Assembly: GCA_027483605.1 (NCBI GenBank)
Contig: JAIXUE010000038.1
Span: 1,479-65,478 of the forward strand
Length of the DNA: 64,000 nt
Direction: 5' to 3'
Source of the DNA: Cryomorphaceae bacterium
Lineage (GTDB): Bacteria > Bacteroidota > Bacteroidia > Flavobacteriales_D > Crocinitomicaceae
A program made the translations under genes and the position numbers. Position 1 is the first letter of the stretch; the number at the start of each line of letters is the position of its first letter. This document shows positions 4,198-55,359 of this stretch, piece after piece. The notes beneath the pieces are model-generated. The model was not told the origin of the DNA, did no database searches, and saw only the letters and a list, made by a program, of their open reading frames with translations.

Positions 4198-7020
4198 TTA
4201 ACGCTTTTTTAATTCTTGGGCCAAATATTTTGCGGTGTAGGAGACTTTTTGAGCCTTTTTAACCATTTGAGTAGGTGTGCCTTCAAAAAGAACCTGACCT
4301 CCGCGCTGTCCGCCTTCTGGCCCGATATCGATAATGTAGTCCGCGGTTTTGATCATGTCTAGGTTGTGTTCGATCACCAAAACAGTATTGCCTTCGTCTA
4401 CCAATCTTTGCAAGACCTTGAGCAGTAGCTGAATGTCCTCAAAGTGAAGGCCGGTTGAGGGTTCGTCCAAAATGTAAATGGTTTTGCCAGTGGCTCTTTT
4501 GGCGAGTTCGGCAGCTAGTTTGATGCGCTGTGCTTCACCCCCTGATAAAGTTGTGGAAGACTGCCCCAGTTGTACATAACCCAAACCCACTTCTTCCAAA
4601 GTAAGCAGCATGCGGTGTATTTTGGGCTGGTTTTCAAAGAACAGACAACCCTCAGAAATGGTCATTTGCAGTACGTCGGCTATTGTTTTGCCTTTGTAGC
4701 GTACTTCCAAGGTTTCGTTGTTGTATCTTTTGCCATTACACTGCTCACACAAGACATAAACGTCTGGTAAAAAGTTCATTTCAATCAAGCGCATGCCGCC
4801 TCCATTGCAGGTTTCGCATTTGCCACCTGCCACATTAAACGAGAAGCGCCCGGGTTTGTAGCCGCGGATGAGTGCTTCGGGCATGTTGGCAAATAAACTC
4901 CTGATTTCGTCAAAAACCTTGGTATAGGTCACCGGATTGGAGCGAGGTGTGCGGCCAATTGGGCTTTGGTCAATCTCAATGACTTTGTCGAGGTGCTCAA
5001 ACCCTGTAATTTGTTTGTAGGGTAGCGGTGTCCGAATTGGGTCGTAGAAATGATTCATCAAAAGCGGGAATAGCGTCTGATTGATCAGCGAAGATTTACC
5101 ACTACCGCTCACGCCCGTAACGTAGGTGAGCGTGCCAAGTGGGATTTGAATATCGATGTTTTTCAGGTTGTGCCCTGTAGCCCCTTTGAGTTTCAGGAAA
5201 TTTCCATTTCCGGTTCTTGTTTGATCCGGGATTGAAATATTTCTAGTTCCATTTAAATAACCCGCAGTAACGGTATTTGCACTTAACATTTCTGGATACG
5301 TGCCAGCAAAGACAATTTCGCCGCCGTGTCGGCCAGCACCTGGCCCGATATCGACTATGAAATCGGCGGCTTCCATCATTTCTTTATCGTGCTCTACTAC
5401 CAGAACGGTGTTGCCGAGGTCGCGCAATTTAGTGAGCGAACGAATGAGTTTGGTGTTGTCTCGTTGGTGTAAGCCGATAGACGGCTCGTCGAGTATATAC
5501 AACACATTGAGCAGTTCGGTGCCAATTTGCGTCGCTAAGCGGATGCGTTGTGCCTCACCTCCAGATAAAGTTTTGGCACTGCGGTGCATGGTGAGATAAT
5601 CTAGCCCCACTTCTAAAATAAAGCCCAGCCGCGCATTGATTTCCTTAATGATTTCTTTGCCGATATACAAAGCTTGCTCATCGAGGAGTTGGGGTAGGAT
5701 GGTGCACCATTCTTGCAGGGTTTGTAAGTCCATGACGGCGAGTTCGCCGATGTGCAGCTGTCCAATTTTAAAATGTAAGGCTTCTTTTTTGAGTCGGTAG
5801 CCCGAACAGCTCGGACACGTTTTCTTGTGCATAAATCCCTGTGCCCAACGCTCAATTGCGGTGGAAGAATCTTCGGCATGCCGCCCCATAAAATGTAATA
5901 ATCCTTCAAAGCGTTCTTGGGTGTCTAGCGGCCCGAGTTCCATGTCTTCGTTGCCGTAAAGCAATAGCTCAATGAGCTCTTCGTCGATGTCGCAGATGGG
6001 CGTATTAAGTGTGAATTGTTGGGCTTGCAGTATTTTTTCAATTTTATCAAAAATCCAAGATCTTTTGTAGGCACCTAGTGGTGCGAGGCCACCTTTTTTG
6101 ATCGAAAGTTTGGGGTCTGGAATGATTTTATCGCGGTCCATTTCACTCACCTCGCCGAGTCCTTTGCAGGTGGGGCAAGCGCCATAAGGGGAGTTGAACG
6201 AAAACAAATTGGGTTCGGGCTCAGGATAAGAAATGCCTGTGGTTGGGCACATGAGCGAGCGACTGTAATGGCGGAGACTTCCGTTTTCTAAATCGAGCAC
6301 CATGAGCGTGCCTTCGCCCAATTGCATGCAAGTTTGTACGGTTTCTTGGCAGCGTTTGTTATCGACGTCACCAGCAATAAAGCGGTCCACAACAACTTCT
6401 ATGTCATGGGTTTTGTAGCGATCGAGTTTGATTGGTTTACTGAGCTCTAGTAGCTCACCATCTACTCTTACCCGCGTATAGCCCAAGCGCTGGATTTGTT
6501 CAAAAAGCTCGCGGTAATGCCCTTTTCTGCCTTTGACTTTAGGTGCCAAAAGCGCCACTTTTTTACCTTTAAAAGTACTTTGGATGAGTTCCGTGATGTC
6601 GTGGTCCGCATATTGCACCATTTTTTCGCCGGTCTGATACGAATAGGCTGTGGCAGTTCTTGCATAGAGCAAGCGAAAGAAGTCGTAGAGTTCGGTAATG
6701 GTGCCCACTGTAGATCTGGGCGAGCGGCCCACCGTTTTTTGCTCGATGGCAATCACTGGGCTCAGGCCGTCAATTTTGTCGATGTCGGGTCTTTCAAGTC
6801 CGCCGATAAACTGCCGAACATATGCCGAAAAGGTGTCGAGGTAGCGCCGTTGCCCTTCGGCAAAAATGGTGTCAAAAGCCAATGATGACTTACCGCTTCC
6901 GCTTAAACCAGTAAAAACAACAAGTTTTTGCCGCGGAATTTCAAGGTGGATGTTTTTGAGGTTGTGTTCTCTTGCGCCTTGAATGCGGATAAAATCGTTG
7001 GGATTGTTGGCTTTAGGCAT
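4198..7020 (-). CDS. uvrA: excinuclease ABC subunit A
   Basis: Two ABC ATPase modules ([18 protein letters not shown], two LSGGEAQR signatures) and Zn-finger CxxC pairs. The likely start is [24 protein letters not shown] at 7020. The track ORF extends upstream to 7101. Confidence 0.95.
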
Positions 7021-9492: not shown

Positions 9493-10806
9493 ATGAGGCC
9501 CTTGTATTTTATTTTTTGGTTCGGATTAGGCTTTAGCTTTCGGTTGTTTTTTCGACGCATTAAAGAAGTGCGTCCGAGCAAAAGTCGTTTTGGAAGAACC
9601 ATCTTTGTAAGTAACCACCCTTCGTCGTTTCTAGACCCCTTGGTTGTGTCGCGTTTACGCAAGCCAGTTGTGTATTTCATGACGCGGTCTGACGTATTCA
9701 ATCGCTTCACTAAGCCTTTGTTTTGGCTCGCCCACATGTTACCGATTTACCGCCAGCAAGATGGTGGTAATTCTCAAGAGAAAAACAAAAAAGTTTTTAA
9801 GAAGGCTACCGAGACCCTTGCGCGCAATCGCAATTTGCTCATTTTTGGCGAAGGCATCACCGACGACATCTTTGAGCGCAGACTCAAACCAATTAAAAAA
9901 GGAGCGCTGCGCATAGGTTTCACTGCTCTAGAAGACCTCGATTGGAAGGTGGAAATCCGCGTTCAAGGTTTGGGCATCAATTATACCAATCCGGGTTTCT
10001 TGAGAGGCGATGTGCTTCTTGCGGCAGCTGAGCCAATTTTGCTCAATGATTACAAAGCTGCCTATTTAGAGAATCCGAGCAAGGTCATATCGGAGCTCAA
10101 TCGCGAACTAGAGCAACGCATGCAAGCGCAAATTACACATGTCAAGTCAGACGAGCACGTCGTGTTGCACGAGCAAATCATGATGCTCAATCGCAAGGGT
10201 ATGCACGTAGATTGTTATGATCCACAAATTTCATTAGAAGCGCGCTGGTTGTACTCCCAAAAGTTGGCGGATTACCTGAACGGATTATCAGAAAATCAAA
10301 ATGAGCAAATTTCAACCATCAAGAATCAAATAGATGCTTACCAAGGCACTTTGCGCGAATTAGGTTTGAAAGAAGCCGAGCTTTATTGGTTTGCCATTCA
10401 AAAGAATTGGCGCTTGTTCACTTTTTTAAAGTTAGTTGTTCAATTGCCATTGTTTTTCATCGGGCTCGTTCATATCGCTTTACCCACTCTTTTTGTAAAG
10501 CGCTTCGTAGAAAAGAAAATGAAAAGACCCGTGTTTTGGTCCTCCACTAAAATGACAATGCTTTTAGTTTTGCTACCCATTTGGAACATCCTCCTGTTTT
10601 TGGTCGCCTCGAACTTCATTTCATTGGAAACATGGTCTTGGGTCTTCTTGTTCTTTGCTTTGAATATTGTCGCATTGGGGTACTATTTATTTATCAGAAA
10701 TACCACCCTCTTGATCAAATCATTACGTTATAACGCACAAAGCTTGCGCTCGGTTGTTGCACAACGAGATACCGTTCTACAACAATTGGAAATACTGCAA
10801 TTCTAA
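9493..10806 (+). CDS. PlsC-family acyltransferase with C-terminal multi-TM extension
   Basis: HxxxxD box (NHPSSFLD) and FGEGIT motif. Hydrophobic helices in the last ~130 aa. Confidence 0.75.
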
Positions 10807-49935: not shown

Positions 49936-51714
49936 TTAATCTACCACCATTAACTCAATCCAAGTCTCCGTTAAATTGACGGTGAGCTGTGTTCCTTTTT
50001 TAGGCTTGAGCGTGAATTCCGGATCGCTCGAGAAGATGAGCAGCCCTAATCGGTGACCTGCTGGTATGATTTGATCGTCTGGTTGAAAGTTAAAGGTGAG
50101 ATCGTAAAATTTGCCTGGTTCTAATGCTGCGCTTTTGTCGAGTGCAGCATGGTTTTGTGGGTCGGCCCAAGCGCGGTTTACAATGATGTCCTCGATTTTC
50201 AACTTCTTCAATTGTGCATCTTGCGGAACCGCAATGAGGTACACCGACAAGTTGGCTGCGGCTTTGCTGCTCGCCACCTGGATGTGAATGCGTCCGGTTC
50301 CTGAAAGGTGCAGGGGTTTTTCTAGATTGTTCCAAAATAGCAGACGGTTTGCCTCCTTTTTTGGTGAAAGGAGTTCGATGGCCGTCAGGCTTGCATCGTC
50401 TGTGAAGGAGAGTTGAGCAGGACTTTTAACCGTTGCTGCCAAGATACCTGTATTTGAATTGGCCGAGCTAGGATAAAAGCGCAGTGCTTCGGCATTCGGA
50501 TTTGGAAACGCATTGTAAGGGTTGGCATCGCGTTTGCCTTTCGAGACAATCCAAGCATCGGCAAGGTTTTCTGCGCCGTTATTGACACCATGCAAATACT
50601 TCGTAAACCATTTGTTCATCATCCAAAGCGGAGGAGGGTAGCCGTGTCCCATTTGATTGTAGTATATTTTGGACGGCAAGCCCATCTTTTTGGCCTGCTC
50701 ATAGAAGCGAAAGCTGTGCTCGGCCATTACGTTCCAGTCTTCAAAACCATGGCACATGAACAAAGCGGCTTTCATGCTGTCCATTTGGGTGAGGTAATCG
50801 CGGGCCGCCCAAAAATCGTTGAAGTCTCCGGTAATTCTGTCTTGCCCGGGTACCAGTACTTTGTCTCGCATGAACGCGTCGTTGTGCGCCCGATTTTCAG
50901 GGTCGCCACTGTGCACAAAATCGTATAAAATATCGGTGTCTTCGCCTAAATAACCACCCGGTGAACGCACCAAACCATTCGAACGGTAATACAAATACCA
51001 AGAACTCACCGGTGCGTTTGGAATGATCGCTTCCAAACCTTTGACACCCGTACAAGCAGCTGCCAAACATAAAGTTCCGTTGTAAGAAGTGCCCATCATG
51101 CCTACTTTTCCTGTCGACCAAAATGCCGTTACGGTGTCCATTCCGGTGCGTGTGGTGTAGCCAACGCCTCTTCCGCACAGCCAATCAATGACAGCAGCAG
51201 GCGCTAATTTTTCGTTCTCGCCTCCAATCGTCGGAACCCCGTCAGAAAACCCAGTCCCGGGCGAAGAAGAATAGACTGTAATATACCCCCGTTTCACCCA
51301 AGTTTGGTCCTGGAAAAAAGCCTCAAGCGGTCGGTTTTCCTTGCGCTTGGCCACAGCATGTTTGTGGGGCGGTGGCGTTGCGCCAATTTCATGGTTCACA
51401 TCCCAATAGTAGCTTTTCGAATCGCCTCCGGTACCCGCAAAATAAGGGCTCGAGGTATAAATAACTGGCAGTTTAAGCCCCTCCGTATTGGTCTGCACCG
51501 GCCGGGTCAAAAACACGTGCATGCGGTCTAGTTTCCCATTCTGATCGCTGTCAAAATTGGTTTGCACCCACAATTCCTCCTTGATCCACTCAGAAGCATC
51601 GCTAAACGCCGGCACCAATTGCGCCTCACCGCTTTTAAAAATGGGTTTGGCTTGTTGCGCGTAGGTGTTGCTGAGTAAGAAAAAGAAGAGGGCAGGAAGG
51701 AAGAAATTTTTCAT
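49936..51714 (-). CDS. S15 family Xaa-Pro dipeptidyl-peptidase / CocE-NonD type hydrolase
   Basis: Signal peptide from MKNFFLPALFFFLL. Nucleophile context GMMGTSYNG. About 590 aa. The track ORF extends upstream to 51861. Confidence 0.8.
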   Translation of the reverse strand: MKNFFLPALFFFLLSNTYAQQAKPIFKSGEAQLVPAFSDASEWIKEELWVQTNFDSDQNGKLDRMHVFLTRPVQTNTEGLKLPVIYTSSPYFAGTGGDSKSYYWDVNHEIGATPPPHKHAVAKRKENRPLEAFFQDQTWVKRGYITVYSSSPGTGFSDGVPTIGGENEKLAPAAVIDWLCGRGVGYTTRTGMDTVTAFWSTGKVGMMGTSYNGTLCLAAACTGVKGLEAIIPNAPVSSWYLYYRSNGLVRSPGGYLGEDTDILYDFVHSGDPENRAHNDAFMRDKVLVPGQDRITGDFNDFWAARDYLTQMDSMKAALFMCHGFEDWNVMAEHSFRFYEQAKKMGLPSKIYYNQMGHGYPPPLWMMNKWFTKYLHGVNNGAENLADAWIVSKGKRDANPYNAFPNPNAEALRFYPSSANSNTGILAATVKSPAQLSFTDDASLTAIELLSPKKEANRLLFWNNLEKPLHLSGTGRIHIQVASSKAAANLSVYLIAVPQDAQLKKLKIEDIIVNRAWADPQNHAALDKSAALEPGKFYDLTFNFQPDDQIIPAGHRLGLLIFSSDPEFTLKPKKGTQLTVNLTETWIELMVVD

Positions 51715-51817
51715 AGGGTGAATTTGGGTAGCTAATTTAACGAGAAGATTAAATAAAGTCAGAATGAATTTCATGCTATCTTCGTATTTAGATAGAGTTT
51801 TTTCAATAAAATTGATA

Positions 51818-52366
51818 ATGAAAACAACCTTCGACGCCGAAACCGTCCTGACCGAACTCATGATACCAAGTTATGCCAATTTTGGTGGCAAGGTACACGG
51901 TGGTATTTTACTTTCCTTAATGGACAAGGTCGCTTACGTTACTGCCGCTAAGCACTGCAGTGGCTATGTTGTGACCGTTTCAGTCGAAGGGGTAGAATTT
52001 CTGAGTCCAATTGAAGTAGGTGACCTCGTTAGCCTAAAAGCGCGGGTTAACTATGTTGGCAAAACCTCTATGATCGTCGGAATCAGGGTAGAAGCCCTTA
52101 ATCCAAAAACAGGTGTGGTCAGGCACACCAATTCTTGTTATTTCACGATGGTAGCCAAAGACGAGCACGGCAAACCAACAGAAGTACCTGGCCTACTGCT
52201 TACAGATGAAGAAAGCCTTAGACGCTTCGCCGAAGGAAAGGCCCTAAAAAGCCTCGCTAAGCAAAAACATCAGTTGTTAAAAGAAGAGTTTCATCAGATG
52301 CCGCTTTCTGAAATTAAGAAAAGTATTGAAGGGGAGCGGGTAGATATTCAGATAATCGGATTATAA
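51818..52366 (+). CDS. acyl-CoA thioesterase (hotdog fold)
   Basis: NFGGKVHGGILLSLMDKVAYVTAAKH...VTVSVEGVEFLSPIEVGD. The track ORF starts at 51764. Confidence 0.85.
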   Translation: MKTTFDAETVLTELMIPSYANFGGKVHGGILLSLMDKVAYVTAAKHCSGYVVTVSVEGVEFLSPIEVGDLVSLKARVNYVGKTSMIVGIRVEALNPKTGVVRHTNSCYFTMVAKDEHGKPTEVPGLLLTDEESLRRFAEGKALKSLAKQKHQLLKEEFHQMPLSEIKKSIEGERVDIQIIGL

Positions 52367-52421: not shown

Positions 52422-52457
52422 AAAAAAGCCCCAATAACTTGAGGCTTTAAAGGAGTG
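52422..52457 (+). repeat. left copy of the 36-bp direct repeat (hairpin terminator-like)
   Basis: aaaaaagccccaataacttgaggctttaaaggagtg, identical to 54598-54633 except for one A/T difference. Confidence 0.85.
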
Positions 52458-52460
52458 TGT

Positions 52461-52496
52461 GAAAGGTTGGAAATATCGAACTTGTTGAGGGAGGAT
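52461..52496 (+). repeat. conserved 36-nt box, copy 1
   Basis: gaaaggttggaaatatcgaacttgttgagggaggat, 34/36 identical to 53718-53753, at the same distance from its hairpin. Confidence 0.8.
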
Positions 52497-52528
52497 GTGG
52501 AGGCTATCAAAACAATGCGCTTAGATAA

Positions 52529-53593
52529 TTAGAAGTATGTCTTCACGGCAAATTCAAATTGTTCGACAAAAATTATTTTGAATGGAGTGATGTTGTTTTG
52601 CTCATAAAATACGAGCATGGCTTTTTTATACTCGATTGAATCGATGGTTCTAAAAGAGATTGGGCAAAATCCTTCATTCATTAAAATGGCATTACTTATG
52701 ATTCTAGCCGTGCGTTTATTTCCGTCTTCAAAAGGTTGAATATATGAAATCAATACTAGTGACAATAGTGCTTTTTCGAAAACATTTGTTTTACTGTTAA
52801 TTAAATTACACATCGCTTGTAATGCTTCTCTAATTTGAAATTCGTTGTCTAATGGTTTGTAATTTGTTCCTGAAATACCAACCCTTCGCTTTCGAATATT
52901 CCTTCCGACTTTTAATTCATTCATTAGAATGCTATGGAGATCTTCTATTCGTGAAGTAGTCAAGGGATTGACATAATCTTTATGAGATAAAATAAAGTCT
53001 AATGCTTCTTTATGATTGAGCAACATGGTGGCTTCATCCTTTGTTTTACCTGCGGCAGTTTGTTTTTCCCGAAGTAATAGCTCTGTTTCCAGTAAAGAAT
53101 AGGTATTTCCTTCTATTTGAGATGATTTCCAACTCAGGTCAATGGCTAGTCGTTCAAATTCACGATTGAACTCATCTTCTGTTAAGTTGGAAGTGTTTTG
53201 TTTGAAAACAGACTGTAAATTATTCAATCGCTCAAGTTCCCCCTCCGAAAACAATTGTGTCGAATTTAATACTTCATCGATTAAAATCAGGTTAAAGTCA
53301 GAACGAATTTGTCGTTCATCGATTTCTTTCAGAAAGTATGTTTCTAAATTGATGGGCGCGATGATGGAATAGCTTGGGGAAAGACAATATTTTGTGCTTT
53401 TTCCATTTCCAATGATTTGAATGTATCCCTCCGATATTAATGATTGCAACGTTCGTTTAACAGTCGCATAAGCTGCAAACTGCTTTACCGCATCATGAAT
53501 TTCCTTGGAAGATACGCGTTCTTCATACTTAAGGTATTCGATAATGAGTTGACGAAGATCGGTAGAGTGAGACATTTTAACTTTTAAGCTCAT
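52529..53593 (-). CDS. Fic family protein with N-terminal winged-HTH; non-canonical motif QPFEDGNKRTAR (catalytic His replaced by Gln)
   Basis: 354 aa. The wHTH region reads SSKEIHDAVKQFAAYATVKRTLQSLISEGYI. Inhibitory-helix-type motif SSQIEGN. Fic core YIQPFEDGNKRTARI, with codon CAA at 52736-52738. Confidence 0.85.
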   Translation of the reverse strand: MSLKVKMSHSTDLRQLIIEYLKYEERVSSKEIHDAVKQFAAYATVKRTLQSLISEGYIQIIGNGKSTKYCLSPSYSIIAPINLETYFLKEIDERQIRSDFNLILIDEVLNSTQLFSEGELERLNNLQSVFKQNTSNLTEDEFNREFERLAIDLSWKSSQIEGNTYSLLETELLLREKQTAAGKTKDEATMLLNHKEALDFILSHKDYVNPLTTSRIEDLHSILMNELKVGRNIRKRRVGISGTNYKPLDNEFQIREALQAMCNLINSKTNVFEKALLSLVLISYIQPFEDGNKRTARIISNAILMNEGFCPISFRTIDSIEYKKAMLVFYEQNNITPFKIIFVEQFEFAVKTYF

Positions 53594-53678
53594 AAATATA
53601 CGAAATAAAGCTCAAAAAAGCAATTAAATGAGCTCTAATGACCTTGTTGATGAGCTTAAAAAGACAAAATGTAAAAAG

Positions 53679-53703
53679 AAAAGCCCCTTTAAAAGGGGCT
53701 TTT
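53679..53703. terminator. strong palindromic hairpin (module border / bidirectional terminator-like)
   Basis: aaaagcccc-tttaaaa-ggggctttt has a 9-bp GC-containing stem flanked by A and T runs. It is related to the hairpin part of the 36-bp repeat. Confidence 0.6.
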
Positions 53704-53717
53704 GAGTTGATGTGGGC

Positions 53718-53753
53718 GAAAGGTCTGAAATATCGAACTTGTTGAGGGAGGAT
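53718..53753 (+). repeat. conserved 36-nt box, copy 2
   Basis: gaaaggtctgaaatatcgaacttgttgagggaggat. Confidence 0.8.
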
Positions 53754-53855
53754 TTGAGTGATGTTAAAAGTTTAATTGATGAGCTTATCATGATTTCAAA
53801 AGAGTAAAAGAATCAAAGTTCCTATATATTAAATCAATTCAAAAGAATCTTACCT

Positions 53856-54443
53856 TTGAGTGTGGATATTAAAAAACTATATATCATTGGTGGATGCAAT
53901 GGAGCAGGAAAAACAACTGCTTCGTTTAATATCCTTCCTGAATTACTCAATTGCAAAGAGTTTGTGAATGCAGACGAAATTGCTCGAGGATTATCTCCAT
54001 TTCAACCCGAAAAAGTTTCCATTGATGCGGGAAGACTCATGCTGACCCGAATTGATGAATTAATTCAATCGAACCAAGATTTTTCATTTGAGACAACATT
54101 GTCAACAAGGTCTTTTGTCAAAACTATTCAAATAGCAAAGGCAAATGGTTATTTTGTGACGCTGATTTTCTTCTGGCTCGATTCAATTGATTTAGCCAAA
54201 GACCGAGTGCAAAGAAGAGTTGCAGAAGGAGGTCACAACATTGAACCAGCAGTTATCGAGAGAAGATACGTGTCGGGTATCAAAAATTTATTTAATTTGT
54301 ATTCCGAAGAGGTTGATTCAATTTTAATCTACGATAACTCTTCACTTAATCCGGAACTGATTGCTGAGAAAGAGATGCAACAGCATTTCAAGATTATTCA
54401 AAACGAAAAATTCATCCAATTACAAAAAATCGCAAATGAGTAA
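53856..54443 (+). CDS. zeta-toxin-like P-loop kinase (COG4185-type)
   Basis: 195 aa with Walker A GGCNGAGKTT close to the N-terminus. NADEIA, and the length, are typical of zeta/PezT-like ATPases. TTG start in the track, with GTG at 53862 as an alternative. Confidence 0.75.
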   Translation: MSVDIKKLYIIGGCNGAGKTTASFNILPELLNCKEFVNADEIARGLSPFQPEKVSIDAGRLMLTRIDELIQSNQDFSFETTLSTRSFVKTIQIAKANGYFVTLIFFWLDSIDLAKDRVQRRVAEGGHNIEPAVIERRYVSGIKNLFNLYSEEVDSILIYDNSSLNPELIAEKEMQQHFKIIQNEKFIQLQKIANE

Positions 54444-54582
54444 CGAAGAAAAAGAATTATTGAAAGAGAAGATCAAGAAAGCTATTCAATTGTCGGCTCA
54501 AAAATTGGTTGCTTCTAAACGAGCAAATGGCCAAAGTGTGGTTGTAAGCAAAGATGGAAAAATTCAGGTGATCAAACCATAA
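54436..54582 (+). CDS. 48-aa hypothetical protein, candidate cognate partner of the zeta-like kinase
   Basis: Its ATG overlaps the last 8 nt of the kinase gene. Sequence MSNEEKELLKEKIKKAIQLSAQKLVASKRANGQSVVVSKDGKIQVIKP has a charged helix followed by a short beta segment. Confidence 0.5.
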   Translation: MSNEEKELLKEKIKKAIQLSAQKLVASKRANGQSVVVSKDGKIQVIKP

Positions 54583-54597
54583 GACTTATTTTTCACA

Positions 54598-54633
54598 AAA
54601 AAAGCCCCAATAACTTGAGGCTTTATAGGAGTG
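54598..54633 (+). repeat. right copy of the 36-bp direct repeat, abutting or overlapping the tRNA 3' end
   Basis: aaaaaagccccaataacttgaggctttataggagtg. Its last 2 nt are the last 2 nt of the tRNA. Confidence 0.85.
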
Positions 54634-54705
54634 GTCCCACACGGGCTCGAACCGTGGACCCACAGATTATGAGTCTGTTGCTCTAACCAACTGAGCTATA
54701 GGACC
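54632..54705 (-). tRNA. tRNA-Met (anticodon CAT), elongator type
   Basis: GGTCCTATAGCTCAGTTGGTTAGAGCAACAGACTCATAATCTGTGGGTCCACGGTTCGAGCCCGTGTGGGACCA folds as a 7/4/5/5 cloverleaf with T-loop TTCGAGC. It lacks the initiator features (no 3 GC pairs in the anticodon stem). I cannot exclude tRNA-Ile2 (lysidine). CCA is not encoded. Confidence 0.88.
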
Positions 54706-54763
54706 GGGTTATCAATGCAAAAGATACGATAACAATGGGCGCAAATTTAATAAAAATTTAGCG

Positions 54764-55359
54764 TTACTTGGCGCGACGAAGCGTAAATTCTGTAATTTCC
54801 GGATAAATACCCACCCGTCCTGGGAAGCCTATATAGCCAAAGCCGCGGTTGACATATAAATACTGTTTGCCTGCTTGATAAAGGCCTGCCCACTTGGGGT
54901 AAACAAAAGAAACGGGGCTCCAGCGCAGGCCAAAACGCTCGATGCCGAATTGCATGCCGTGGGTGTGTCCGGAGAGCGTGAGGTCGACGTCGGTATGGAT
55001 CACTTGTGCATCAAAGTGGCTGGGGTCGTGGTTGCCCAAAATGCAGTGTGGCGAGCGCAAAACCGATGTTTCTGGCCAATTCGAGTTGAAAGGTGAGAAA
55101 GACCAAGCCCGGAAGCAAATAAACAATTGCGGGTAGGGCTAGCGCCACAAATAGTCCGAAAATGGAAAATCCTAATTTGTAATTGCTGCGCATTTTGATA
55201 TTGCGAAAGCCCCACATGAAGAGCAGGATGCTACCTAGGGATCAAGCCTAAATGAAGGAAGCCAAAGGCGGCAAGATAAGGATTAGGGATGCTCCAAATA
55301 GCGAGTAGAAAAATCCATTCTGAAACGATCAGAAGGAGTAGAAAGAGGAGAAATAACAT
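54764..55359 (-). pseudogene. decayed YkuE-like membrane metallophosphoesterase
   Basis: The C-terminal 120 codons are intact (ILGNHDPSHFDAQV...LSGHTHGMQFG...). The N-terminal TM region lies in two other frames (55359->TAG; 55217..55011). The DxH and GD motifs are absent. Confidence 0.7.

Follow-up and report, generated by a model that had tools for sequence, protein, structure and literature searches.

How did a 2.2-kb AT-rich islet with toxin-like genes come to lie at the 3' end of a tRNA-Met gene, between two nearly identical copies of a 36-nt repeat? The question is raised by positions 52422-54633 of a stretch of Cryomorphaceae bacterium DNA (GenBank assembly GCA_027483605.1, contig JAIXUE010000038.1), the whole 64,000 nt of which are called the window here. 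The islet is a real insertion. Instead of a single element it comprises two independent cassettes, and a conserved 45-nt box stands at the head of each. On balance, they are taken here as two members of a family of recombinase-less cassettes that form polar arrays at the 3' end of tRNA-Met and are probably moved site-specifically in trans, with a range across freshwater Flavobacteriales (Cryomorphaceae, Crocinitomicaceae and relatives).

The repeat reads AAAAAAGCCCCAATAACTTGAGGCTTTA[A/T]AGGAGTG, and its copies at 52422-52457 and 54598-54633 are identical at 35 of 36 positions. With up to three mismatches allowed, exactly two copies were found in the 64-kb window compared to none in 100 shuffles. 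The tRNA-Met(CAT) gene was placed on the minus strand at 54631-54705 by ARAGORN and at 54632-54705 by Rfam (RF00005, 70 bits); the right copy of the repeat overlaps its last 2-3 nt, and the left copy begins 55 nt past the stop codon of a thioesterase gene (52364-52366). Both copies score as intrinsic-terminator-like on the strand of the tRNA (minus). The GC content between the copies (52458-54597) is 0.346 compared to 0.449 in the rest of the window, below that of every non-overlapping 2.14-kb window (minimum 0.388; z = -4.87), and GC at third codon positions (GC3) is 0.32 in the islet versus 0.44-0.57 in the flanking genes. The islet is foreign in composition. A Fic-domain protein, a Zeta_toxin-domain ATPase and a 48-codon open reading frame (ORF) make up its content, and neither ORF content nor Pfam revealed an integrase or a transposase inside it. 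Most of this had been claimed by an earlier, sequence-only reading of the locus: its repeat positions, identity and tRNA overlap were reproduced on recounting, its four hand counts of GC on 60-nt lines were exact on computation, and its gene content without integrase or transposase was confirmed.

The same reading had suggested looking for an empty site in relatives. Thioesterase homologues with 97% identity were found on four contigs (L001-L004, in the locus numbering used here); a JGI metagenome and an NCBI genome assembly supplied one each, and assemblies of public sequencing runs the other two. In all four, the thioesterase stop is followed by the same 56-nt spacer, one hairpin (aaaaaagcctcatcactgaggcttttgaaaggagtg) and directly by tRNA-Met. 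Beyond the tRNA, L004, the sole contig long enough, continues with an intact 381-aa metallophosphoesterase gene, an aldolase gene and BshC.

The islet had been read as a single element, and in this respect the sequence-only reading has to be corrected. A second repeat, noticed in the same reading and termed the box, is real: 52455-52512 matches 53712-53769 with an identical 27-nt core, and each of the two cassettes has its own 45-nt box. From left to right, the layout is hairpin, box 1, Fic gene (minus), hairpin, box 2, zeta gene and 48-aa ORF (plus), hairpin and tRNA-Met, with the following features:

52422-52457, no strand: left copy of the 36-nt repeat, a hairpin module (A-run, GCCCCAATAACTTGAGGC, T-rich spacer, GTG) that is terminator-like on the minus strand.
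52455-52499, plus strand: box 1, a diverged copy (GTGTGTGAAAGGTTGGAAATATCGAACTTGTTGAGGGAGGATGTG) at the start of the Fic cassette; repeat search, 27-nt core exact, nhmmer E = 4e-13.
52529-53593, minus strand: cargo 1, a protein with winged helix-turn-helix (wHTH) and Fic domains and the non-canonical motif QPFEDGNKRTAR; Pfam Fic PF02661 6e-15, PADLOC SoFic and PDC-S04, 1e-19.
53676-53711, no strand: internal hairpin module (AAAAGCCCCTTTAAAAGGGGCTTTT plus spacer) at the end of the Fic cassette; terminator-like on both strands, the hairpin itself at 53679-53703.
53712-53756, plus strand: box 2, the consensus copy (GTGGGCGAAAGGTCTGAAATATCGAACTTGTTGAGGGAGGATTTG) at the start of the zeta cassette; repeat search, E = 2e-16.
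53856-54443, plus strand: cargo 2a, a Zeta_toxin/AAA_33-type P-loop protein; Pfam PF06414 2.6e-10.
54436-54582, plus strand: cargo 2b, the 48-codon ORF, which overlaps the zeta stop and always follows zeta in relatives.
54598-54633, no strand: right copy of the 36-nt repeat, the hairpin module closing the zeta cassette and now the putative tRNA-Met terminator; repeat and terminator score.
54631-54634, no strand: GTGG junction, the putative crossover point common to tRNA and boxes; identical left contexts in five locus pairs.
54632-54705, minus strand: tRNA-Met (CAT), the anchor of the array; ARAGORN, Rfam RF00005.

The GTGG consists of one base beyond the tRNA end, the discriminator base and the last two nucleotides of the acceptor stem. 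The internal hairpin folds as DNA at -13.5 kcal/mol (z = -5.6), and the same module is present in L015. Orthologues of the Fic cassette were found in L019, L035 and L048, and zeta proteins 90-99% identical to that of the window occupy the same cassette in other genomes.

Both boxes belong to a family. An exact scan of 185,579 species genomes with the 27-nt core gave 10 loci and a scan of metagenome contigs with a 23-nt core gave 19 more; the exact scans and a profile hidden Markov model (HMM) search yielded about 50 box copies in about 30 loci (L015-L048). The named hosts are all freshwater or aquatic Bacteroidota (Cryomorphaceae, Crocinitomicaceae, 'Flavobacteriia' and Lishizhenia). The left edge of the box is sharp at GTGG; the sequence to the left of it is variable and nearly always holds a GC-rich hairpin between an A-run and a T-run, while to the right of the box follow sequence families that match the cargo. 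The boxes within any one locus are all co-oriented, and wherever the tRNA is on the locus they point at the 3' end of an adjoining tRNA-Met(CAT) (the window, L017, L021, L023, L024, L041, L043 and, with degenerate boxes, L048). Cassettes measure about 0.9-4 kb (at least 8 kb in L025) and carry three types of Fic protein, zeta with the 48-aa ORF, HepT with MNT, an AAA_14/DUF4143 ATPase, Hachiman (HamA and helicase), a Fib_succ_major protein, a ChaN-like protein, several proteins without family, and a CBASS-like SMODS cyclase with a patatin-like protein (whose GGGxRG motif was recognized only by eye). Cargo genes are found in either orientation and, therefore, the box is not a promoter or leader.

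The point at which cassettes join was located by comparing loci. In five locus pairs, an identical cargo end, hairpin and spacer are followed either by GTGG|TCCCAC, which is tRNA, or by GTGG|GCGAAAGG, which is box:

L021-2310 and L035-5503, with 150 nt identical.
L017-2521 and L021-1388.
L041-1552 and L019-4173.
L023-5872 and L016-3080.
L043-4241 and L017-805, also L030.

As the left context is the same within each of the five pairs, tRNA and box are interchangeable at one precise point. The hairpin loop was considered as the crossover region and rejected, as the right stem and the spacer stay with the left context whichever partner comes next.

Gain, loss and reordering of cassettes were also seen. 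Over 4080 nt, through the right 36-mer, L018 matches the window with 99.68% identity; it then has a third box and a Hachiman cassette in place of the tRNA, whereas the conspecific L044 and L045 (99.65-99.76%) have the arrangement of the window. The proposal that the site is a recombination hot spot thus found support in a strain of 99.7% identity with an extra cassette exactly at the junction of repeat and tRNA. In L019, zeta is followed by a 36-mer-type hairpin and by box and Fic, the reverse of the order in the window. Identity of the zeta cassette between the window and L017 or L024 is 92-94%, whereas that of the flanking housekeeping genes is only 78-86%, which indicates that this cassette has moved between genera. 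Arrays also decay by deletion, with fused cassettes in L019 (a Fic-MNT fusion) and L048 and degenerate boxes in L048.

What then is the 36-nt repeat? It is the hairpin module that closes cassettes, and it appears as a direct repeat because the two-cassette block has the same module at both of its outer borders. The window variant (loop aataactt) stands after the zeta cassette in L018 and in L024, where the hairpin between zeta cassette and tRNA-Met is identical to the left copy of the window at 36/36 positions; near variants follow zeta in L019 and L048, and related ones follow HepT/MNT, Fic and other cargo. The module family of the left copy is present at cassette borders in L018, L019, L024, L028, L041 and L048. 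The 36-mer, present twice in the window, is not a generic scattered REP-type repeat. Loops of the GCCCC/GGGGC hairpins were seen as T3A4, T4A3, T1A6, T6A1, T5A2 and also atcact/agtgat (L015, L018, L021, L023, L024, L028, L035); because the variants come as such T3A4/T4A3-type sets, the palindromic module occurs in both orientations relative to the box.

In a search for an enzyme that could move the cassettes, no recombinase came to light in the window (motif scan of all ORFs; Pfam on 18 ORFs, not every ORF), in the conspecific L044, which covers window positions 43856-64000 (Pfam marks on called genes), or within 10 kb on either side of the arrays in L044 and L048, the whole genome not being searched. 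Among the cargo and flank proteins of the arrays, Pfam, PADLOC and PHROGs gave none except for an IS3 transposase in L039. Site-specific recombination in trans is the simplest explanation for four features: the junction precise to the nucleotide, the strictly kept polarity, the exchangeability of box and tRNA, and the gain or loss at this point between near-identical strains. A cassette runs from the 45-nt box through one to a few genes of defence or toxin-antitoxin (TA) type, in either orientation and with their own promoters, to a terminator-like hairpin ending in GTGG, and cassettes join each other and the tRNA at this GTGG. In the proposed reaction, the hairpin-GTGG-box site of a cassette that is free and probably circular would recombine with the end of the tRNA or with a box already in place, and the catalysing recombinase would have its gene at another site of the genome or on a helper element. 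The hairpin module next to the tRNA would now also terminate the tRNA transcript. The sequence-only reading had left a choice between a remnant and an element mobilized in trans; the latter would stand, whereas a one-off remnant does not agree with a family of box-headed arrays across genera.

Several observations weigh against movement in trans by a site-specific recombinase. As no recombinase was identified, we infer its central step; tRNA and box share only the 4 nt GTGG at their junction, which is short for the overlap region of a tyrosine recombinase. Neither excised circles nor free cassettes were seen, and viral contigs, phage genomes and plasmid collections contain no box and yielded no parent element. 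The loci are mostly short metagenome contigs and, in consequence, the ends of arrays are often invisible. The hairpins add a further difficulty. The one at the empty site (gcctcatcactgaggc) is related to the repeat of the window and differs from it in the loop and one stem base. Therefore, the repeat is not simply the hairpin of the relatives doubled, and the proposal of an ancestral hairpin duplicated by the insertion was given up, all the more as the window variant travels with the zeta cassette in other genera (36/36 in L024; also L019 and L048). One and the same cargo is followed by different hairpins, as for zeta (L017) and the c4-Fic cargo (L015, L021, L034), and loop variants follow the array and not the cargo (the two copies in L019, the three in L048, and every copy in the window and L018). 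Neither this mismatch between hairpin and cargo nor the array-specific loops would be expected from a single crossover at GTGG; either insertion copies the module from the target, or gene conversion homogenizes the hairpins within arrays.

The second of these options leads to the possibility that homologous recombination does everything. In such a scheme, DNA would be taken up and RecA crossovers would take place in boxes, hairpins, tRNA-Met and the right flank, as in the 'minimal mobile elements' of Neisseria; cassettes would be lost by recombination between direct repeats, and no dedicated recombinase would exist today. The absence of a recombinase from everything scanned agrees with it, the 45-nt near-identical boxes and the tRNA flank supply enough homology, the independent exchange of hairpins and cargo together with the homogenized loops is the pattern of gene conversion, and many arrays contain plain deletions that fuse cassettes (the Fic-MNT case of L019; L048). 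However, homologous recombination could not create the first junction of box and tRNA, which share only GTGG, and yet the same junction is found behind several unrelated hairpins; it favours replacement over addition, and it leaves unexplained why the same box stands in the same orientation at every cassette start whatever the cargo or its orientation. Recombination by way of boxes and flanks certainly has a part in exchange and loss, but as the only process it is unlikely. Copying of the module from the target would instead require an integrase that makes staggered cuts around the terminator hairpin of the tRNA, so that a module of about 36 nt is duplicated each time a box with its cargo is inserted, as happens to the CRISPR repeat when Cas1-Cas2 take up a spacer and to the target site of a casposase. 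The same module indeed flanks the insert of the window (35/36) and one cassette of L024 (gccccatcactggggc twice), L048 has it at each of three borders and L019 has it twice, its left edge is always the start of the A-run, and loops are specific for the array and not for the cargo, with identical cargo ends next to different hairpins in different hosts. The internal junction of the window has a different hairpin, however, and the same holds for many arrays (L017, L021, L035); neither a Cas1-like nor any other integrase was seen, the handling of gene-sized inserts in this way has no precedent, and gene conversion within arrays accounts for the same pattern. We regard such a duplication as improbable.

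Slightly more improbable still is an origin in islands or integrative and conjugative elements (ICEs) that integrated one after another at tRNA-Met and each lost the integrase and most genes. It is well documented that elements accrete in tandem at tRNA genes and then decay (PMC5704250), the arrays frequently show deletions, and the 12-18-nt fragments of the tRNA-Met 3' end in L016, L023 and L043 are the classical signature of tRNA targeting. On the other hand, about 30 loci yielded no integrase fragment at all, the cassettes are uniformly small with the box exactly at their start, the same ones are met again intact in different arrangements and genera, and the repeat is not a tRNA fragment. 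Finally, the 36-mer might be a common terminator that happens to be present twice next to native AT-rich genes, since it is terminator-like and a GC-rich hairpin between A and T runs is a common terminator shape. Such a coincidence can practically be dismissed: it is refuted by the empty site in relatives and the cassette family, and the GC deviation (z = -4.9), the 35/36 identity with no chance matches and the recurrence of the module only at cassette borders also speak against it. Movement in trans by a site-specific recombinase therefore stays the reading adopted here. A bolder version of it, held only tentatively and possible rather than expected, would be an integron-like capture platform of Flavobacteriales, with the tRNA-Met 3' end as attI, the hairpin-GTGG-box as attC and a dedicated unlinked recombinase that moves and shuffles defence and toxin cassettes between genera; the hairpin module of about 36 nt may then be duplicated at each insertion.

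In a literature search over a limited collection, no description of the box or of the array was found, and the cassette family is apparently previously undescribed. The locus fits a category known from Alteromonas and others, the additive flexible genomic islands at tRNA genes, for which a zeta-toxin cassette at a tRNA-Met island has been reported (PMC4898812). As in those islands, there is a tRNA hot spot, near-identical strains differ in how many and which cassettes they carry, and near-identical cassettes occur in divergent species; that category is descriptive and has no cassette anatomy, whereas here a 45-nt box, a hairpin border and a tRNA junction precise to the single nucleotide are present. 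Integrons, including the sedentary chromosomal ones, and clusters of attC sites lacking integrases (CALINs) resemble the arrays in their small co-oriented cassettes with one fixed insertion end, shuffled order and common TA cassettes, and the border element is very similar within the clade, as for the VCR repeats of Vibrio. In contrast, no intI was found, entry is at a tRNA 3' end and not at attI, cargo lies in both orientations with its own promoters, and the border is an unstructured, non-palindromic box with an ordinary terminator hairpin. With fold energies of 0 to -2.5 kcal/mol and plain terminator hairpins, the architecture of attC (R''/L''-L'/R', RYYYAAC...GTTRRRY) is absent.

Integrative islands of the tyrosine-integrase type share with the islet the tRNA 3' end and the empty site. 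However, the repeat is usually the 3' part of the tRNA (at least 15 nt), whereas here it is the downstream terminator with 2-3 nt of tRNA overlap, and an integrase beside the att site is lacking in the islet and in the related arrays. Elements without integration genes, with att-like repeats at the 3' end of the target, which stack in tandem and use a foreign recombinase, are known as cis-mobilizable elements (CIMEs), and accretion of this kind is described for ICESt1/ICESt3 (PMC5704250). The islet has repeat and box borders and no integration or transfer genes, and it shares with CIMEs (PMC5704250) the tandem stacking at the 3' end of a target gene and probably the recombinase in trans. CIMEs are decayed ICEs or integrative and mobilizable elements (IMEs) whose repeats are the target gene's end; here about 30 loci show no trace of such decay from larger elements (no remnants of integrase or conjugation genes), the common core is only GTGG and the conserved box is not target-derived. 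The composite SCC islands of staphylococci are likewise stacked site-specifically at the 3' end of one conserved gene, rlmH (orfX), where pseudo-SCC elements that lack ccr and have short direct repeats are moved by CcrAB in trans. They differ in phylum, target and repeat, and the SCC recombinase is known and often in the island. The minimal mobile elements of Neisseria are alternative cassettes between conserved genes, with no mobility gene and exchange by flanking homology; they have no conserved cassette end and form no arrays, unlike the box-headed arrays here. In Prochlorococcus, Tycheposons are anchored at tRNA genes, carry defence or adaptation cargo and are pushed inward by new arrivals (bioRxiv 10.1101/2020.12.28.424599). 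These have their own tyrosine recombinase and flanking partial tRNA copies, whereas neither a recombinase nor a tRNA-derived repeat is present here. A DDE transposon or insertion sequence is not indicated, with no inverted box in the window or most arrays (both-strand HMM), no transposase and a repeat of 36 nt.

The nature of the box itself was also considered. It is not a tRNA fragment: its reverse complement lacks the T-arm and acceptor geometry, it gives an unconvincing ungapped match of about 40% to the 3' half of tRNA-Met, and ARAGORN was negative. Neither is it a structured RNA or DNA, as its fold energy of 0 to -2.5 kcal/mol does not surpass that of shuffled sequences and it has no Rfam match at E <= 1. 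One frame is open through the box, (V/M)GERSEISNLLRED[LIVM].., with a stop 5-17 codons further on (window 53712-53807 and 52455-52532); gene callers annotate a 31-aa ORF on it (9795-9890 of the conspecific L044), and some box variants look synonymous in this frame. Against a small gene speak four copies without a start codon, the terminator directly upstream and an open stretch after the box that is like chance for AT-rich DNA; a small gene is therefore a possible reading that was not adopted. A terminal inverted repeat or attC-like outer stem was rejected, as the inverted box-start motif AGAYTTCTCGCC lies about 60 nt to the left of GTGG in only 5 of 45 junctions, all five associated either with tRNA-Met fragments or with the box that comes first in an array, distal to the tRNA. 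Group IIC introns, Tn7-like ends and IS200/IS605-type ends were rejected for lack of a conserved second end, ribozyme or transposase; for the intron, there is no Rfam intron match at E <= 1, only the left end is conserved and the cargo consists of ordinary genes. The GTGGGCG common to the box and the Tn7-like end is probably a coincidence.

Some further units were observed within or next to the arrays (coordinates of AGAYTTCTCGCC units are box-oriented). At L016 2971-3080, L023 5765-5872 and L043 2690-2828, short units start with a 12-18-nt copy of the tRNA-Met 3' end and contain an inverted AGAYTTCTCGCC, resembling the start of a box, about 60 nt to the left of the next GTGG. At L033 ~690-757 and L035 ~4520-4581, the inverted AGAYTTCTCGCC is found at the first box of the array without a tRNA fragment. 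These units resemble what a second tRNA-Met-targeting element, of the classical kind and possibly related to the box, would leave behind; the tRNA-Met 3' fragments of L016, L023 and L043 imply that another type of element uses the site. A conserved, coding-free module of about 190 nt, which ends in a small hairpin and a degenerate second box, follows some boxes in six loci (L015 4754-4990, L025 121-360, L026, L029 2892-3130, L031 and L034) and looks like an empty or collapsed cassette. In L022 (~2090-2185) and L023 (~4280-4359, both box-oriented), a low-complexity tandem repeat, GAGCGGAGAAACAGAAAGAGAAACAG..., lies between a putative flavin-oxidoreductase-like flank gene and the first box of the array.

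With regard to the cargo of the window, the label 'toxin islet' given by the sequence-only reading needs correction for the Fic protein. This protein has a Fic domain, and its best matches in defence libraries are SoFic and PDC-S04. The canonical motif HPFx[DE]GNGRxxR (HxFx[DE]GNGRxxR) is absent: QPFEDGNKRTAR was read in its place in the window and in three orthologues (L019 2555-3601, L035 5577-6623, L048 7394-8440), with the catalytic His replaced by Gln and a Doc-like NKR in the motif. Because of this replacement, the label of toxin is unsafe, and the protein may not be an AMP-transferase toxin. The zeta protein contains the PF06414 domain and a Walker A motif (GGCNGAGKT). It resembles zeta/epsilon systems of the PezAT type in its kinase domain and differs in that no epsilon/PezA antitoxin was found upstream, where only the 31-codon frame on the box is present; downstream there is instead the 48-aa ORF, without a family match.

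Two host genes flank the islet:

51818-52366, plus strand: 4HBT acyl-CoA thioesterase, outside the islet on the left; Pfam PF03061 1e-18.
54760-55359, minus strand: metallophosphoesterase pseudogene, outside the islet on the right, with an internal deletion of about 549 bp seen as an alignment gap.

The decayed pseudogene noted earlier beyond the tRNA is thus a metallophosphoesterase gene that lacks about 549 bp. The gene is intact (381 aa) in L004, L017 and L048; the missing segment is present in L004 and L017, and the conspecific L044 and L045 carry the same deletion, which is therefore fixed in the lineage of the window. The side of the tRNA distal to the array is conserved (metallophosphoesterase, aldolase, BshC, methylmalonyl-CoA mutase), whereas the opposite side is variable. 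Gene order left of the thioesterase differs as well: the window encodes an X-Pro dipeptidyl peptidase there (49936-51861), and L001-L004 instead have a DUF4407/OmpA-containing operon, the thioesterase itself lying at a rearrangement boundary.

A conservative reading also accounts fully for the islet, and it cautions against taking the 36-nt repeat as a simple target duplication. The locus offers a concrete case of near-identical strains that differ by a single defence system, with Hachiman present or absent at 99.7% identity. If a dedicated recombinase does move the cassettes, the 45-nt box would be a sequence tag for cassette borders and hence for new defence genes in metagenomes, several of the cargo proteins being without a family. 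The arrays would then represent a second, independently evolved integron-like route for collecting and exchanging defence and toxin genes, operating in abundant, rarely cultured freshwater Bacteroidota.

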